Of a DNA stretch of 23,469 bases, positions 1 to 13,091 are shown one piece after another (position 1 is the stretch's first letter; each line of letters starts with the position of its first letter). The notes under the pieces were generated by a model that searched no databases, had not been told where the DNA came from, and was given only the letters and a program-made list of their open reading frames with translations. A program made the translations under genes and the position numbers. The DNA is from a virus. The stretch is from UHGV virus genome UHGV-0341897. One strand, 5' to 3'.

Positions 1-156
1 CAGGTCAACATGCCAGCCGCCACCAACACCACCTGGATGACATGTGGCGATCCCTGTGATTCCGCACTGCGTATCTGGGGCGACACCGTTGTCGAGTGTG
101 TGCTTAACAAACTCTGCCCGTCGCATACCTACGTAATTTTTAAATATCCGGAGTAA
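1..156 (+). CDS. 3' end of an upstream phage tail/baseplate-region gene (partial, 5' end outside window)
   Basis: Frame 1 is open from position 1 to TAA at 154-156 (ends ...[13 protein letters not shown]) and sits immediately upstream of the tail-fibre ORF. Function inferred from position only. Confidence 0.35.
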
Positions 157-159
157 TCC

Positions 160-744
160 ATGCATCGTATAGACACGAAAACCGCGCAGAAGGATAAGTT
201 CGGCGCGGGTAAGAACGGTTTTACCCGTGGTAACCCCCAGACCGGCACACCTGCCACCGATCTGGATGATGACTACTTTGACATGTTGCAGGAGGAACTT
301 TGCAGTGTTGTGGAGGCATCCGGTGCCAGCCTGGAGAAGGGGCGGCATGACCAGCTGCTTACAGCGCTTCGTGCGCTGCTGTTAAGCCGCAAGAATCCGT
401 TTGGCGATATCAAATCGGATGGCACGGTGAAAACGGCTCTCGAAAACCTTGGTTTGGGAGAAGGTGCTAACTGGGTTATGTTACCTGGAGGAATGATAAT
501 TCAGCGTGTTTATCTTGGATTTCCTATTGGCACTAATGTAAGACATATAACTTTCCCCCGGTCGTTTACAACAACGAACTATTCCATCTCAATTAACTGG
601 AATGATATCGGTACTGTAACAACTGAAACACAATCACCAGCAAATGTGGCGGTTGTTCATCAAACAAAATCATTAACAGGGGCCAGCATCTGGCAGGCAG
701 GTCCCGGGGGATTTAATGTGGACATTATAGCGGTGGGGTATTGA
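160..744 (+). CDS. stfP: Side tail fibre protein, variable segment (StfP-like)
   Basis: 194-aa ORF starting [21 protein letters not shown]..., followed directly by a tail-fibre assembly gene. Resemblance to e14 StfP is recalled from memory, not searched. Confidence 0.65.
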
Positions 745-745
745 T

Positions 746-1174
746 ATGTACGTATGGAGCGCTAAAGCAAATGGCTTTTTCCCCATATCGGAGAAAGAAA
801 AATTTGAGGCATCAGGTCTGTGGCCTGATGATGGTGTAATAGTCAGTGAGGAAGAACATAAAAAGTTATTTATGGATATTCCACCAGGAAAACAGATTGG
901 AACACTGAATGGAAAACCAGCACTGATAGATATTCCTCAGCCGACCAAAAAGGAATTAATAGCTATTGCTGAAGTTAAAAAATCCCAATTACGGGAAAAG
1001 GCTGACAGTGAAATATCCTGGCGTCAGGATGCTGTTGATGCTGATATCGCAACTGATGAAGAAGCTACAACTCTCACCCAATGGAAGAAATACCGTGTGC
1101 TGCTGATGCGTGTTGATACGTCAACAGCACCCGATATTGAATGGCCTACGCCTCCGGCAGTTCAGGCCAGATGA
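746..1174 (+). CDS. tfaP: Tail fibre assembly protein (TfaP-like)
   Basis: 142-aa ORF starting 2 bp after stf, with the Tfa-type C-terminal motif DTSTAPDIEWP. Its 3' end overlaps the convergent tfa gene by 29 bp. Confidence 0.7.
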   Translation: MYVWSAKANGFFPISEKEKFEASGLWPDDGVIVSEEEHKKLFMDIPPGKQIGTLNGKPALIDIPQPTKKELIAIAEVKKSQLREKADSEISWRQDAVDADIATDEEATTLTQWKKYRVLLMRVDTSTAPDIEWPTPPAVQAR

Positions 1175-1739
1175 CATCCGGCGCGGTGCTGGTATCTGTT
1201 GCCGTCACCGCGTCAATGTAATCCAGCACGGCGTTAAGTCGGGTTGTTTCTGCCTGAGTCAGTTTCCGTCCGGCCTGTAATTTCAGCTGAATCAGACTAA
1301 TGGAAGCCATTGCTGCATCAATCAGTGACTGGCGCTGTGCTTCTGCCGCGTCTACTGCGGCACTGTGTTGTGCCTCAGTGTCTGTCACCCATTTCTCACC
1401 ATCCCATTTATCGTATGGCGTTAACGGTGAAAGCGTGACATAACCGTCTTTGATGGCACCGATATAATCCACTGTAACAGCTGCACCATTTTCGATTGAG
1501 TAAACAGTCTCATTGCGATGGTCTTCCTCATGGCTCCATCCCTTACCTGTAAATACCGTCACTCTTCCCAGAATGTTTTCGCCCGGGTCAATACCAGTTG
1601 AACAGGCGGGCATACTTACGCCAGTATTAATATATTCATCAGACCAGCCCGTATACTCAGATGTTTCAGCATCATAATAAAAACAACGCATATCGCCCGG
1701 CACTGTAGCCAGCCCATTTTCATCAAAAACAGGTTTCAT
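1146..1739 (-). CDS. tfaE: Tail fibre assembly protein (TfaE-like), convergent partner
   Basis: 197-aa ORF with the conserved Tfa C-terminal motif TDTSTAPDVIWP. It lies directly downstream of a fibre C-terminal segment on the minus strand. Confidence 0.75.
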   Translation of the reverse strand: MKPVFDENGLATVPGDMRCFYYDAETSEYTGWSDEYINTGVSMPACSTGIDPGENILGRVTVFTGKGWSHEEDHRNETVYSIENGAAVTVDYIGAIKDGYVTLSPLTPYDKWDGEKWVTDTEAQHSAAVDAAEAQRQSLIDAAMASISLIQLKLQAGRKLTQAETTRLNAVLDYIDAVTATDTSTAPDVIWPELPEA

Positions 1740-2221
1740 TATTTAGCCCTCACCAGAAAGTTAAATGCAATATTTCGCGGTCTGACAGCAACAAAATTCA
1801 CACCATCACCCACAGAGTTACTGGTGAAATTAAATCGTGAAAATCCTGGCTGATTTCCGGCGATGCCATCATGAAAGTTAATTGCGTGTCCCGCACCTTC
1901 GCCTATATTCCCGGCAAACTGAGAAAAGTTTGTAGCTGCCTGCCAGCTTAATAATTCGCGACCACCATCTGCACCTCGCCCGTCATCCCAGACACGAATG
2001 AAATCACCGCGTGCGTCAGGTAATGCCAACGCCGGAAACACTTTCGCCAGCACAGGGTAATCAGTGGCAGAAAATTTCGCCCCGTTGAACTTCAAAAACA
2101 CCATACTGGACCAGCTGTCGATTACAGTATTTGGCATTGCAGCGGACGCCCAGAAGAACGGAACGCCAATAGCTGGAGCACCTTCTCCCAAACTGCGATG
2201 GCTCACTGCTGATATGTGCAA
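1739..2221 (-). pseudogene. stfE: Side tail fibre C-terminal variable segment (StfE-like), without an N-terminal constant region
   Basis: 160-aa ORF ending ...RNIAFNFLVRAK, a Gly/Asn-rich fibre-tip sequence. The ORF track start is a TTG and no full-length fibre N-terminus lies upstream. This is the alternative module of an invertible-type cassette. Confidence 0.6.
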
Positions 2222-2415
2222 TCGACGGGGAGTTCAGGATCAAGCGATATCGGACTCATCCTCAACACCACCTGATTAATTTGGAGAGCGGGAGAAGGGA
2301 GATGCTACCAGTAGATGATGACGGTTACGGTTCTGCTCCCGCGATATTCGGGGTGATTACTTACATCATTAATGATGCGAGGAACGCGGAGTTTGATGAT
2401 TGTCCGGTGATGTAA

Positions 2416-3084
2416 TCATATTGGCGTTATTAGTTCGGCGCCCTGATTTTTCACATTCCCGACGGCACGCGTTACGGCGTGCCATATAAATTTATCAGCC
2501 GGTACAACACCGTCGGCTGCAATTTCCGCTGCTTCTTTCCCTCCAACATCCTGCCTCATCCATTCACGCGCGGCTTCCGGTAGCAGTACCAGTGGTCGTC
2601 TGTCGTGAATATCAACCAGTCCTTTGTCAGCTGCAGCTGTAACTATCAGGAAACCTTCTGCTTCATCTCCACGTTCGAATGGTGTGCTGCCGATCGCCGC
2701 CATAAAAATCGGCTGACCGTCTGCCCGGTGAATAAAGTAGGGTTGTTTTTGGTCGCCTTCCTTTTTCCACTCATACCATCCATCAGCAAAGCAAATTGCG
2801 CGGCCATGCTGCCAGAGTGGTTTAAACATTCTGCTGGTGGCAGCAGTTTCAGACCGTGCATTAATGAGCGGCGGTTTATCCCACCAACCGGGGGCGTATC
2901 CCCAGATAACTGGATCAAGATGCAACTGCTCATCACGTTCGCTCAGAAGCAGAACTTTTGTTCCTGGCGCTACGTTGAATCTTCCGATGGGTTCTGGATC
3001 GTATGGAATATCGCGTTCTGATTCATCAGCGAGAAGGGCAAGATAATCTTCACGGGTCATTGACTGTGAAAAGCGTCCACACAT
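2416..3084 (-). CDS. yedK: SOS-response-associated peptidase (SRAP; YedK/HMCES family, abasic-site processing)
   Basis: 222-aa ORF starting MCGRFSQ (the catalytic Cys2 signature of SRAP proteins), the same length as E. coli YedK. A GGAGG Shine-Dalgarno sits about 7 nt upstream of the ATG. Confidence 0.85.
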   Translation of the reverse strand: MCGRFSQSMTREDYLALLADESERDIPYDPEPIGRFNVAPGTKVLLLSERDEQLHLDPVIWGYAPGWWDKPPLINARSETAATSRMFKPLWQHGRAICFADGWYEWKKEGDQKQPYFIHRADGQPIFMAAIGSTPFERGDEAEGFLIVTAAADKGLVDIHDRRPLVLLPEAAREWMRQDVGGKEAAEIAADGVVPADKFIWHAVTRAVGNVKNQGAELITPI

Positions 3085-3318
3085 AGAAACCTCCAGCCGT
3101 ATGTCAGACTGAAAGTATAGGGCAGTTAGAAAAAGTGGTGCACACCGTTAAAGATTTAAAAGGAGCATGTAAGGTAAATCGGAATGATGGTTTTGTGAAT
3201 TGATGAATTCCGAAAGTGAAAAAGATACTTAATCATTGTGTGCTAGCGATACGGGGGCAACATTTGACGGGGTTTTTCCCCTGTAATTCCCCATTGCTTC
3301 CCCGTTCAGAAAACAGGC

Positions 3319-3349
3319 AAAAAAACCAGCCGTAACAGGCTGGTTCTTC
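3319..3349 (-). terminator. Rho-independent terminator immediately 3' of the tRNA-like fragment
   Basis: Minus strand reads AACCAGCC-tgttac-GGCTGGTT followed by TTTTTTT. Confidence 0.5.
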
Positions 3350-3358
3350 GAGGATTTT

Positions 3359-3410
3359 TGGTCAGCACGAGAGGATTTGAACCTCCGCCCCCGACACCCC
3401 ATAGCGGTGA
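3359..3410 (-). other. tRNA-Pro-like 3' half (T-arm, acceptor 3' strand and CCA; no 5' acceptor strand) - probable att-site remnant
   Basis: Minus strand reads ...CACCGCTATGGGGTGTCGGGGGCGGAGGTTCAAATCCTCTCGTGCTGACCA. It has a GGTTCAAATCC T-loop and terminal CCA and resembles E. coli proL as recalled from memory. No complementary 5' acceptor strand (CAGCACG) is found upstream. Confidence 0.5.
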
Positions 3411-3598
3411 TCTACCTTCTCATCAAGGGTAACCATGTGCCAGAAGCAGCCCTTGCGCACATTGGATGGGTATCAAATAATGAAGTAGGTCAACTTTATT
3501 AAATAAAATTGTGTTGGTTCAGATGATCGAATGGGAATGAATAGTTTATTACTTTTGGTGACCGCAAGCGCGATCACCTTCGATTTGGTGGCAATTAC

Positions 3599-4567
3599 CT
3601 AGAATGATGCACAATCTTTAAGCTCTTTTTCTAGTTGTTCAACCAAGTCACAGCATTTTTTGATAACATCTTTAACTGACTCTGAATCTAACTTATGAAA
3701 ATTACCATTTTTTGTTTTACCTGCTCGATGAACTAAGTCATGCCTAATTAACACGCTTTTATAAACTTCTGTGAAAACAGGGAATTTAATACCAAAGGTA
3801 TCTCGATACATGCCACTTACTTTTGGCAGATTATGATAAAGAACACTCTTCATAGACTCTATCGCTTGAGACTCTATTTGTTCATGCCTTATAAATAATT
3901 CAGAAAGTAAGAATTTTTCTGTATTGTAATCTTTGAAGGTTTCAACAAAATTTCTCAAATTAGTTTGGCTACCATGAATTAGGGAAATAAATCTGTCACA
4001 TAAATATGTTTCCAAGGAAGTTATTGTATTGGCATATAGCATATACGACATTTGTATTTGTAAAGTGCTATCAATTTTTAACTGAGCATCATTTAGTTTT
4101 ATGGCGTTCTGCATACTATTTTGGAATGTCATATAGACATCTCGTTCAGATAGCGTTCGATCATCAGAGTACTGCATATCAATAACATCTAGAATGCGCT
4201 GTTCAATTAATGAAGGTCTATTCAACTGTAATATATCTATAGTCGCATGTCCTCGCTCAGTTAAACCTTCTAAATATCCATTTTTATTTTGTTTTATATG
4301 TTCTGAAAAACTTTCATTTAAAGGATTTAGAAGTAATGGTTTGCCATTTTCATCGAGAGGAAACTGATCTTTTTTAATCATGCTACATGCCTTACAAGCG
4401 ATGAGCAGGTTGTCTGTAGCATCTTGGAAGTCAGTATACTTTGATTTTGGGAAAAAACGATCAACATCCGCCATCAATGGTTCATAAAGTTTAGTGCCAC
4501 AGTAAGCACATTGATGCTTAAACTTCTCCCATAGTTCAAGTTTAAACGTTTTATAATTCTTATTCAT
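3599..4567 (-). CDS. Orphan HNH-like zinc-finger nuclease-domain protein with a C-terminal helical domain carrying an Rx4HxR (HEPN-like) motif; candidate defence or restriction protein
   Basis: 322-aa ORF in a very AT-rich island. N-terminus has C-A-Y-C ... V-D-R-F-F-P ... D-N-L-L-I-A-C-K-A-C-S-M-I-K-K, an HNH/His-Me finger pattern with Arg where the catalytic His is expected. C-terminus has LIRHDLVHRAG. AAGGAA Shine-Dalgarno lies 8 nt upstream of the ATG. Confidence 0.75.
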   Translation of the reverse strand: MNKNYKTFKLELWEKFKHQCAYCGTKLYEPLMADVDRFFPKSKYTDFQDATDNLLIACKACSMIKKDQFPLDENGKPLLLNPLNESFSEHIKQNKNGYLEGLTERGHATIDILQLNRPSLIEQRILDVIDMQYSDDRTLSERDVYMTFQNSMQNAIKLNDAQLKIDSTLQIQMSYMLYANTITSLETYLCDRFISLIHGSQTNLRNFVETFKDYNTEKFLLSELFIRHEQIESQAIESMKSVLYHNLPKVSGMYRDTFGIKFPVFTEVYKSVLIRHDLVHRAGKTKNGNFHKLDSESVKDVIKKCCDLVEQLEKELKDCASF

Positions 4568-4640
4568 TGAATAGTTCCTTTATATTCTTGACTTGATTGT
4601 TTGTTTGCCAATTTAAGCCAAAGACACACGACTTTAATTG

Positions 4641-4676
4641 GGCTTGAATCATAGTTATATGTAATCTATTAAGCAA
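4641..4676 (-). promoter_or_regulatory. Putative sigma-70 promoter for the HNH-like gene
   Basis: Minus strand reads TTGCTT, a 17-nt spacer, then TATGAT, about 75 nt upstream of the ATG. Sequence-only prediction. Confidence 0.3.
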
Positions 4677-5011
4677 ACACTTTTCATTAATAGCATGAGA
4701 TAACGCTCAATTCTTTATTTTCCGGGAGTGTGTAACTTCATATCCACCTCTCACTCACAGCGTACGTTATTGGCGAAAAATTTAGTTAAGCCATTGATAG
4801 TTTGTGAAAACACGCATGATTTAAAATCCCTTTGCCGTGAAGGGGCTGATAGGTACAGGCACTTGTTTTTGCCCTCTAAAACGGTTATCAAAACCAAAAA
4901 ACATACATTGATAATCAATAGGTTAGGGGAAAGATAAAAGCCAGTTGATTTACAATAAAATTATAGGATTATTTTTATTTATCATGCGGTTGTATATGAA
5001 CCATCTAACTA

Positions 5012-5176
5012 CTGCTGCGCCATATGGGCTGGACTGAAGCCGCAGACCTGATTGTTAAAGGTATGGAAGGCGCAATCAACGCGAAGACCGTAACCTATGA
5101 CTTCGAACGTCTGATGGAAGGCGCTAAACTGCTGAAATGTTCAGAGTTTGGTGACGCGATCATCAAGAACATGTAA
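5012..5176 (+). pseudogene. icd: Isocitrate dehydrogenase 3'-terminal 165-bp segment (icdC-like att homology), not joined to an icd body
   Basis: Translation [54 protein letters not shown] matches the Icd C-terminus. An in-frame TAA lies immediately upstream, and the DNA further upstream is AT-rich and unrelated. Confidence 0.85.
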
Positions 5177-5199
5177 TCTCTACATGTGTTAAATATTGA

Positions 5200-5230
5200 A
5201 ACGGGCGTATAACACGCCCGTTGTTTTATG
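5200..5230 (+). terminator. Rho-independent terminator after the icd 3' segment
   Basis: Perfect 9-bp stem AACGGGCGT / ACGCCCGTT with loop ATAAC, followed by TTGTTTTAT. Confidence 0.65.
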
Positions 5231-5242
5231 ATGATGTAAAAT

Positions 5243-5279
5243 CTTCCCCAAAACTTTCCCCAAAACCCTTCCCCAAAAC
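5243..5279 (+). repeat. Three tandem 12-bp direct repeats (C/T)TTCCCCAAAAC between the att homology and int; candidate integrase arm-type binding sites
   Basis: Direct reading gives cttccccaaaac, tttccccaaaac, c, cttccccaaaac. An imperfect inverted copy (gttaggggaaag) lies near 4922-4935 on the other side of the icd segment. Confidence 0.55.
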
Positions 5280-5289
5280 TGGCTATTTT

Positions 5290-6432
5290 CTATGCTGTTT
5301 TGATATCTACGATAATCCAGTCTTTACCACGATCATCATTGTATCGGTCGGTCATTTTTCTGGATTTATGGCCTAACAACTTTTGCGTATCCAGACCCTG
5401 TTCCCGATATAACCGTTCTGACAGAGATCGCTGCTCATGAAATGTGGGCGCAGTTCCTTGCTCCCATTTTATGCCACATTTTTCCCTGGCCTTTTTAAAA
5501 GCCGTTGTCAGAGTATTCGCAGAAACCTGGTCTCCTCTGTTTGCTTGAGAGGTTGTGTGACGGTAATGGACCAGATATTTACTAACAACAGCATCCCTGC
5601 ACTGAGATATAACTTCACGAAGGGTAATATTCAGAGCATCGCATTTCAGGTTAAGCGGAATAGCAAGTTTTGAACCGGTTTTTTCCTGAGTAATGTGCAA
5701 CATGTCGTCCCAGATATCAGAGAATTTCAAATTGCAGATATCGCCTAAACGTTGTCCAGTGACAAGAGCAAGTAGCATCCCACATTTTAAATAGGGCTGC
5801 CGTCTGCTTACGCTGTCAAATATTGCCTGCCATTCGGGCAGTGATAATCTTTGGCGGTTTACTCGATTTCGCGGTTGTTTTGTTGCCTGCGCTGGGTTAA
5901 ATCCTGGCGGAACATGTCCTGCGTGTTGTGCTTCTTTGAAGACGTCGATTAACACCATTCTCACGACTTGCGCCATCCTGTTATGACCTTCAGCCTTTAC
6001 AGCATCAATTATTTCGGCAATATCAAGTGCGGTAATATCCTTGAGGTGTTGCATTCCACAATGCTCACGGAAAAGACGAATGGGTTTGCCTTTTTGCCGA
6101 TAGGAGTTGGGTCTTAGTTCATTATGTTGCAGCCTGTCCTCCTGGATAGAAATATATTTATCAAGCCATTCTGTCACCGTAATGTCTGAGCGCCTGCCTT
6201 TCATTCTTTCCAGACGCTCATTGACGCTTAATATTTGTCGGGTACGTTGTTCAGCAATAATGATATTTGCTTCAGTAGCAACTTGTTTTGCTTCATTCTC
6301 ATCAGTTCCTAAGCTATGAAAACGACCGGATAGTGGATGTTTGTATTGCCAATATACCTTTCCGGTTCGCTTATCTAATTTGCAATATAAATTGGGTATA
6401 GAGATTTTGTGAGATCGGGGTCTAGCAGCCAT
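5290..6432 (-). CDS. int: Tyrosine recombinase, lambda-family integrase
   Basis: 380-aa ORF whose C-terminus (HEQRSLSERLY ... LLGHKS ... TDRYNDDRGKDW) parallels the lambda Int catalytic region. It is adjacent to the att homology and overlaps xis. Confidence 0.95.
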   Translation of the reverse strand: MAARPRSHKISIPNLYCKLDKRTGKVYWQYKHPLSGRFHSLGTDENEAKQVATEANIIIAEQRTRQILSVNERLERMKGRRSDITVTEWLDKYISIQEDRLQHNELRPNSYRQKGKPIRLFREHCGMQHLKDITALDIAEIIDAVKAEGHNRMAQVVRMVLIDVFKEAQHAGHVPPGFNPAQATKQPRNRVNRQRLSLPEWQAIFDSVSRRQPYLKCGMLLALVTGQRLGDICNLKFSDIWDDMLHITQEKTGSKLAIPLNLKCDALNITLREVISQCRDAVVSKYLVHYRHTTSQANRGDQVSANTLTTAFKKAREKCGIKWEQGTAPTFHEQRSLSERLYREQGLDTQKLLGHKSRKMTDRYNDDRGKDWIIVDIKTA

Positions 6433-12545: not shown

Positions 12546-13091
12546 ATGACTATGCAACCACTTACATACCAACAGACTAGCGGATTTAGCCCGACTGCGG
12601 TGATAAATCGTTCTCAAACAAAACAGGCGCCAGGCCACGAAAAAATCCGTGATGCCGTTCGCGCCTGGTCGGCTGCAGATAATCAGGATGTTGTTGCCGC
12701 ACTCATTGTGAATGAGTATCGGGAGCAGGGCGGCGGCACCATCGATTTCCCTGATGATGTCAGCCGTGCACGCCAGAAGCTGTTCCGCTTCCTCGATAAC
12801 AAATTCGATTCTGAAAAATACCGAAATAACGTGCGTGAACTGACCCCGGCAATTCTGGCGGTACTACCGCTGGAATATCGCGGCCACCTGGTTGAGCAGG
12901 ATAGCTTCATGGCTCGGCTGGCTGAAATGGAAAAGGAACTCAGTGAGGCAAAACAGGCTGTCATTCTCAACGCACCACGCCACCAGAAACTGAAGGAGAT
13001 GAGTGAAGGCATTGTGTCGATGTTTCGTGTGGACCCGGATCTGGCTGGTCCACTGATGGCGATGGTCACCACCATGCTGGGGGCAATATGA
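12546..13091 (+). CDS. CII-position regulator (possibly YdaT-family)
   Basis: 181-aa ORF between cro and O. Assigned by position only; YdaT-like identity is a guess from memory. Confidence 0.5.
   Translation: MTMQPLTYQQTSGFSPTAVINRSQTKQAPGHEKIRDAVRAWSAADNQDVVAALIVNEYREQGGGTIDFPDDVSRARQKLFRFLDNKFDSEKYRNNVRELTPAILAVLPLEYRGHLVEQDSFMARLAEMEKELSEAKQAVILNAPRHQKLKEMSEGIVSMFRVDPDLAGPLMAMVTTMLGAI

Follow-up and report, generated by a model that had tools for sequence, protein, structure and literature searches.

The question raised by this locus is why a tRNA-Pro-like sequence should lie, together with a terminator, inside a prophage that is itself integrated at icd. The window, by which we mean the whole 23,469-nucleotide stretch of UHGV virus genome UHGV-0341897 analysed here, had been read from its letters alone as carrying a proline tRNA 3' half at 3319-3410. 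We found that the whole feature is broader, spanning approximately 3254-3442 on the minus strand, and that its parts follow one another 5' to 3' as a decayed tRNA 5' half, a proL-like core, a terminator and a set of GGGGAA repeats. These parts and the neighbouring features are as follows.

2416..3084, minus strand: SRAP (SOS-response-associated peptidase) gene (Pfam SRAP, 6.8e-51)
3254..3275, minus strand: rest of the conserved distal arm AAAACCCCGTCAAATGTTGCCCC, toward the SRAP gene (conservation with relatives)
3276..3303, minus strand: three direct GGGGAA repeats GGGGAAgcaatGGGGAAttacaGGGGAA with an 11-nt period, candidate arm-type integrase sites
3313..3349, minus strand: Rho-independent terminator with a 12-bp stem, 6-nt loop and T-run
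3359..3402, minus strand: core ATGGGGTGTCGGGGGCGGAGGTTCAAATCCTCTCGTGCTGACCA, matching proL from the anticodon loop through ACCA
3403..3442, minus strand: decayed tRNA-Pro 5' half TGGCACATGGTTACCCTTGATGAGAAGGTAGATCACCGCT, aligned to the proL 5' half via intermediates
3599..4567, minus strand: PtuB-like HNH nuclease gene, upstream and co-directional (PADLOC PtuB, 1.1e-23)
5010..5177, plus strand: icd 3' fragment (partial isocitrate dehydrogenase annotation in the AH01 locus)
5244..5274, minus strand: second triple-GGGGAA cluster, three TTTTGGGGAA repeats, between the lambdoid integrase stop and the junction 5229/5230

A decayed tRNA-Pro sequence, its terminator and its repeats

The host gene matched by the core is proL, the tRNA-Pro gene with anticodon GGG, found in E. 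coli C in the context yejM-proL-yejO. The core comprises the anticodon loop ATGGGGT, the variable loop, the T arm (GGAGGTTCAAATCCTCT, 3370-3386), the 3' acceptor strand and ACCA, and when aligned to proL A32-A76 it is identical at 43 of 45 positions with one gap. Its two lesions are a 1-nt deletion in the G-run of the variable loop and a C71 to T change in the acceptor strand, giving CGTGCTG. Even without gaps the best match to the 45-nt 3' part of proL reaches 36 positions, against at most 26 in 20 shuffles, so that the 3' portion originally predicted (T arm, acceptor strand and CCA) was borne out, and alignment to the host proL carried it back to the anticodon loop.

The same prediction held that the 5' acceptor strand was absent, and this proved wrong: beyond the interval first described, at 3403-3442, there is a decayed 5' half, which starts with the acceptor strand TGGCACA (3436-3442), the proL counterpart of which is CGGCACG. 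The D-arm region of this half is scrambled and expanded, its anticodon-stem 5' strand reads CCGCT, and better-preserved intermediates in AR_0128, UTI89 and IMG/VR copies link it to proL.

All examinations of the relic as a tRNA gave the same outcome. ARAGORN called no tRNA gene at this position of the window, and Rfam reported no tRNA here at its gathering threshold; the highest-scoring hit of a permissive scan with the Rfam tRNA model takes in no more than model positions 10-63 and, at 18.9 bits, stays below the threshold of 29. The acceptor stem would consist of four Watson-Crick pairs, two G-U pairs and one mismatch, the scrambled D-arm region is expanded by 9 nt, and the minimum-energy fold of the 84-nt stretch is not a cloverleaf (z = 0.04). 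Compensatory stem changes were sought among 13 decayed copies and none were found, their 5' strands varying and their 3' strands being invariant, nor was a sigma-70-like promoter found upstream of the pseudo-tRNA. With neither a finder call or sufficient score, nor a cloverleaf, nor compensation, the relic is not a functional tRNA, in keeping with the earlier reading, which a complete, foldable tRNA called at this place would have refuted. Other weak Rfam matches were rejected: those to RNAI and isrK cover only the terminator hairpin and fall far under threshold, and one to HPnc0260 on the AR_0128 locus (L001) is likewise far under threshold and antisense to the T arm.

At the homologous position PGAP calls an 82-nt tRNA-Pro, both in AR_0128 (L001 8932-9013) and in more than 100 E. 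coli genomes. Because the AR_0128 copy is not called by ARAGORN and scores 15 bits in Rfam against the threshold of 29, this annotated gene appears to be a pseudo-tRNA. Over 52 copies ARAGORN recognized a tRNA in 5, each with a genuine host 5' half, and among approximately 20 decayed copies it recognized none.

The terminator predicted to follow the CCA was confirmed. Its hairpin (3349-3320) forms 12 pairs and runs into a T-run, with a dG of -17.5 kcal/mol and a z-score of -3.7, and none of 200 shuffles was equally stable. The hairpin is G+C-rich and its stem is kept in homologues: among 50 distinct versions the stem segment CCAGCC/GGCTGG was changed on both sides to CCAACC/GGTTGG in 6 and to GCAGCC/GGCTGC in 1, the other stem changes being 4 single ones compatible with G-U pairing and 2 disruptive ones. 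The terminator had been described simply as a clean one, and here the reading has to be corrected, as by its sequence it is the phage-borne counterpart of, and replacement for, proL's own terminator. It follows the co-directional HNH gene at a distance of approximately 250 nt, and nothing resembling a promoter was found between the two. Judged from this arrangement, its present role is likely to be that of stopping the HNH-gene transcript ahead of the SRAP gene, and termination after this gene would be the only plausible current role of the relic.

Past the terminator, the sequence is 0.86 identical to that of other decayed copies and 0.33 identical to the chromosomal proL flank, and it is therefore phage arm and not chromosomal flank. 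The three GGGGAA repeats found here are absent downstream of chromosomal proL, and the conserved arm continues through 3254-3275, which is shared with AR_0128, L011, L020, L064 and the phage copies. The pattern GGGGAA-N5-GGGGAA-N5-GGGGAA has one match in the window and none in 100 shuffles of it, and in IMG/VR contigs 42 of its 122 occurrences directly follow a proL core and terminator. On account of this position and recurrence, the repeats are candidate arm-type integrase-binding sites of the int-distal arm, their sequence pattern being that of the arm-type repeats of a tRNA-targeting attachment site. The second triple-GGGGAA cluster, at 5244-5274, is spaced differently; 500 Markov simulations of the window gave none with even one such cluster, where the window has two.

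The carrier prophage and the phages that use proL

Over positions 1-5229 the window shares 99.4-99.8% identity with an e14-like prophage that has a Mu-type tail and is present in E. coli AH01 and 7 other complete genomes. In AH01 this prophage is bounded at one end by icd with an integrase and xisE, and at the other by the icd 3' fragment, which is the true right-hand attachment junction of the prophage carrying the relic. Counted from that boundary the relic lies approximately 1.6 kb inside the prophage, on the same strand as the SRAP and HNH genes between which it sits. The HNH gene encodes a stand-alone product of 322 aa with no PtuA partner nearby; its match to the NCBIfam PtuB model (6.6e-08) is under cutoff, and PGAP names it 'HNH endonuclease'. 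It occupies the position of McrA in e14. At the same position elsewhere we observed a HEPN gene in AR_0128, and in UTI89 DUF262 and GIY-YIG genes nearby.

From 5230 onward the window is a separate lambdoid prophage, whose integrase gene (5290-6432, with a lambda-type Arm domain) lies 1.85 kb from the relic. The statement that no integrase is nearby thus failed in the letter, since this gene is present, and held in substance, as it belongs to the adjacent prophage. We rejected it as the cognate enzyme, despite the shared GGGGAA arm motif, because its identity to Flotzy Int is 25% and because it has a separate host junction, at 5229/5230.

Two further rearrangements were noted in this region. 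The lambdoid prophage begins approximately 52 nt past the stop codon of the icd fragment, just beyond the hairpin that follows this stop; in AH01, which is without it, the 48 nt at the insertion point (L002 12055-12102) are repeated 858 bp away (12913-12960), the two repeats being 87.5% identical and flanking iraM and ymgK. In addition, a 1.75-kb invertible tail-fibre segment (window 444-2193) stands in the orientation opposite to that in AH01 (L002 4642-6391), and the 1.5 kb that follow it in AH01 (L002 6392-7894), containing a Pin-type invertase, dinI, a small ORF and the start of an S24/UmuD-like pseudogene, are missing from the window at 2193/2194. Since this deletion abuts the end of the inverted repeat, the tail-fibre switch appears to be locked.

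In a distant search of phage genomes, three temperate phages, Flotzy, Eeyore and Phi06_2987, proved to carry the conserved block, as did Gifsy-2. In Flotzy and Eeyore a UmuD-like gene adjoins the block on one side and the integrase gene on the other, and the Eeyore order of tail fibre, invertase, DinI, UmuD-like gene and block matches that of the window's prophage. From CATGGGG to CCA the phage copies match K-12-type proL with 100% identity, and they continue into a proL-like terminator and three GGGGAA repeats at 11-nt spacing. By tblastn, a Flotzy-type integrase lies immediately upstream of the block only in Flotzy, Eeyore, CX21 and L111, lies approximately 1.6 kb upstream in Phi06_2987 and L104, and was never found adjoining copies with a decayed 5' half; SRAP, DinI or UmuD-like genes were found downstream of nearly every copy.

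Lysogens place the same block at the host gene, as had been proposed in the suggestion that related genomes be searched for elements integrated at tRNA-Pro. In CX21 a Flotzy-like prophage occupies the chromosomal proL, with yejO, core and integrase in this order, and the EC2641 junction reads tail fibre, invertase, DinI, UmuD-like gene, distal-arm repeats, phage terminator, tRNA-Pro and yejM, the tRNA-Pro being complete at 77 nt. A scan of species-representative genomes for the core with the repeats returned 13 loci in Citrobacter, Enterobacter, Serratia and Symbiopectobacterium, 9 of which are host junctions with an intact tRNA. proL has also been published as a prophage site in E. coli O121:H19 (PMC8767318).

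An identity block shared with the 3' part of the host tRNA is therefore found both beside a phage integrase and at both junctions of proL prophages, and the suspicion that the window holds attachment-site material of a tRNA-Pro-targeting element was supported. The source of that material was not as supposed: it had been attributed, as probable, to a different element captured in the cargo stretch, and is instead the edge of a conserved module shared with proL-integrating relatives, with which the window's prophage has its tail-fibre and DinI/UmuD-like/SRAP region in common.

The junctions also yielded two side observations. In L137, L140 and L141 (Serratia, Symbiopectobacterium and Citrobacter sp.) the core has GTCAGG 3' of the anticodon loop, pairing with the TGTC of the anticodon-stem 5' strand, which suggests that the phage attachment core tracks the host tRNA sequence. 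In L142 (DAINBV010000046.1, a MAG labelled Geobacteraceae) an Enterobacter-type proL leader is joined to a Flotzy-like prophage arm whose UmuD-like and DinI genes are 98-99% identical, and this is probably a mis-binned or contaminating enterobacterial contig.

Conservation, decay and tandem copies

Upstream of A32, the sequences of 62 copies fall into 24 unrelated clusters, and only positions -5 to -1 are partly conserved, as C.GTC. Since this motif is partly kept, the conserved core is CCGTC-ATGGGGT-GTCGG, in which imperfect inverted repeats flank a loop of 7 nt; this is the layout expected of the core of a tyrosine recombinase of the lambda family. In the window the left core half-site is CCGCT in place of CCGTC, with its most conserved position changed. 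Other copies are preceded by unrelated cargo ORFs that are nearly always co-directional and end approximately 25 nt before the T arm. Among decayed copies, mean pairwise identity was distributed along the feature as follows.

5' half: 0.60
core: 0.98
spacer and terminator: 0.90
repeat arm: 0.84
30 nt after the arm: 0.53

A recognisable damaged 5' half is retained in 13 copies, which include the window, AR_0128, UTI89, several IMG/VR contigs and Citrobacter. All 13 carry T1 and A7, where proL has C1 and G7, and these shared changes imply a single origin of the decayed 5' halves. By this signature many prophages of E. coli, Citrobacter and Salmonella share one full-length ancestral copy, from which the pseudo 5' half is derived. 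The ancestor may have been a host-phage junction that was captured, or else an ancestral attachment site containing a complete tRNA copy; the former would be expected to bring along a host leader, and when the roughly 10-20 nt upstream of the 5' half were compared with the proL leaders of Citrobacter, Enterobacter, Serratia and E. coli, no match was found.

Prophages integrated at ssrA, in UTI89 and approximately 100 related genomes, carry this relic too. The Salmonella phage Gifsy-2 (44204-44333; L006 approximately 4000-4130) has an unannotated and further-decayed copy that has lost the anticodon-arm 3' strand; after it comes an SRAP-like reading frame, likewise unannotated, with 86% identity over 178 of 222 aa.

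In all 8 of the genomes nearly identical to the window, AH01 among them, window 3287-3404 is present in two copies, 1172 bp apart. These flank an AT-rich cassette of approximately 1.05 kb (L002 9107-10158) with a 261-aa ORF that has no match in Pfam, NCBIfam or PADLOC, and a search for the cassette elsewhere found it only in the same 8 genomes. The copy on the SRAP side has a pristine core, and the copy on the HNH side has the window's lesions and 5' half. Through the terminator and two GGGGAA units the two repeats do not differ, which points to homologous duplication or deletion and not to two independent attachment sites. Save for one SNP, the window is what a single homologous deletion between the AH01 repeats would produce; its single copy could be such a product or, alternatively, the ancestral single-copy state. 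The length of the T-run varies among the strains bearing the tandem and is not diagnostic.

Insertion of the cassette by an anticodon-loop crossover into a window-like site was considered and rejected, the core markers being reversed from the prediction. Such a crossover would put the damaged core on the SRAP side, whereas AH01 has the damaged core (5 G, CTG) with the old 5' half and the pristine one on the side of the cassette. Tandem modules, or an SRAP gene upstream of a decayed copy, were also noted in L017 (2621, 6076), L038, L054, L131 and L139. In the tandem contigs one core-terminator-repeat module is followed by SRAP and the next by DinI, and on the strength of such contigs module duplication recurs outside the AH01 lineage.

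A probable fossil attachment-site module weighed against its alternatives

Taken together, we consider it very probable that the feature is a fossil proL-type phage attachment-site module without its cognate integrase, a decayed and ordinary evolutionary relic. It is read as a proL-type module because the block adjoins the integrase gene in Flotzy and Eeyore and forms the proL junctions in lysogens, and as one without its enzyme because the carrier integrates at icd with an e14-type integrase; no cognate integrase stands next to the site in the same element. In its working form, as in Flotzy and Eeyore and their prophages, the module comprises a core identical to the host proL between the anticodon stem-loop and CCA, the phage-borne terminator copy and an int-distal arm with the three GGGGAA repeats, the integrase gene being on the other side of the core. 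From the junction structures and sequence patterns we infer that integrase would bind GGGGAA and that strand exchange would occur in or near the anticodon loop, the host then retaining its own proL 5' half and gaining the phage 3' part with its terminator, which would replace that of proL. In the ancestry of the window's prophage the module would have been left behind when the integration module turned icd-specific. Its decay is visible in the two core lesions, the broken left half-site and the scrambled 5' half.

Conservation of core, terminator and arm in copies without an adjacent integrase exceeds what neutral decay would leave, and calls for either exchange or a retained function. The conserved 3' block is probably best accounted for by the adjoining SOS-gene module having undergone homologous exchange, time and again, with active proL phages, whose core would be constrained to match the host gene; retained function is the alternative account.

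That the resemblance to a tRNA is due to chance or artefact is hardly conceivable. The tRNA finders do make no call, but a 43/45 match to proL with one gap stands against at most 26/45 in shuffles, on which ground this candidate was rejected, and homologues occur in the same context in hundreds of genomes and phages. A more serious contender is a degenerate phage-borne tRNA-Pro gene, the remnant of a tRNA that once worked in translation and was unrelated to integration, a reading akin to the truncated phage-borne tRNA that had been offered as the alternative from the outset. It would account for proL similarity that spans the full length of the tRNA, beyond the 3' part, and for the PGAP annotation of better-preserved relatives as an 82-nt tRNA-Pro in more than 100 E. 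coli genomes. However, not one of the approximately 20 decayed copies is called by ARAGORN, the PGAP-annotated copy has 15 of the 29 bits needed, the disruptive T1 and A7 are common to all decayed copies, and a promoter was not found. The conserved block moreover passes the CCA into the proL-like terminator and the GGGGAA attachment-arm repeats, adjoins an integrase gene in Flotzy and Eeyore, and has stayed host-identical in its 3' part while the 5' half decays, a pattern that suits an attachment core better. We thus regard a former translation tRNA as a quite improbable source of the feature, though it is possible as the distant origin of the 5' half.

The remaining contender, in our judgement unlikely, is that the relic is still active as a secondary attachment or recombination site at which proL-type integrases dock and cargo is swapped at the anticodon-loop boundary, in the manner of an integron-like hotspot. 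In its favour, the core is met at the same boundary by at least 17 upstream sequences that are unrelated to one another, most of them co-directional cargo ORFs; both AH01-type genomes and L017 have a cassette between tandem copies; and copies without an integrase beside them still conserve core, terminator and arm. Homologous exchange that runs out of shared sequence would, however, leave a sharp boundary as well, and in the window copy the left half-site is broken and the core bears two lesions. The AH01 marker arrangement counts against such use as well, being the opposite of that predicted for an anticodon-loop crossover, as does the identity of the AH01 repeats through the terminator and two GGGGAA units, which is suggestive of homologous duplication or deletion. 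In a broader form, to which we give an equally small chance, the orphan module would be kept as a docking site at the edge of the SOS-gene module, with cargo or defence genes swapped via proL-type integrases acting in trans or via homologous exchange. If true, this would explain why unrelated co-directional cargo ORFs share the anticodon-loop boundary, and why core, terminator and arm are 84-98% conserved beside a decaying 5' half.

As a fossil attachment-site module the relic is a clean case of integration-module replacement, with a proL module preserved inside phages that now use icd or ssrA, and it provides a marker for module exchange among the Mu-tail/Pin-type prophages of E. coli, Salmonella (Gifsy-2) and Citrobacter. 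It also yields a prediction for a family of Arm-domain integrases, namely GGGGAA arm sites with a CCGTC-ATGGGGT-GTCGG core. The current understanding of integration is unchanged by these findings. Temperate phages with lambda-family (Arm-domain) tyrosine integrases integrate into tRNA genes, P22 at thrW being an example, and an anticodon-loop class of such sites exists. The feature resembles tRNA-gene attachment sites in its identity block from the anticodon stem-loop to the 3' end, its loop-plus-inverted-repeat core and its direct arm repeats, as well as in the sibling phages that carry an adjacent integrase gene and in the reconstitution of the host tRNA after integration. It differs from them in that the window is without a cognate integrase, the site is degraded and a decayed tRNA 5' half is attached to it. 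The arrangement is also unlike that of lambda, in which three tandem arm sites are int-proximal, whereas the tandem repeats of the proL module are on the int-distal arm, beyond the phage-borne terminator.

With phage-encoded tRNA genes the relic shares a tRNA-derived sequence in a phage genome and relatives that PGAP annotates as tRNA-Pro; unlike them, it fails every tRNA test, a promoter for it was not found, and it is embedded in attachment-arm sequence. Also comparable are the cryptic-prophage remnants of E. coli K-12, ptwF/thrW' (CP4-6), pawZ/argW' (CPS-53), pauD/argU' (DLP12) and icdC (e14). Like these it is a non-functional partial copy of a target gene that arose from site-specific integration and is either annotated as a pseudogene or unannotated. 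The K-12 remnants lie at the boundary of their own prophage, whereas the window relic is buried approximately 1.6 kb inside its carrier and travels with a phage module between hosts and integration sites, at icd here and at ssrA in UTI89.
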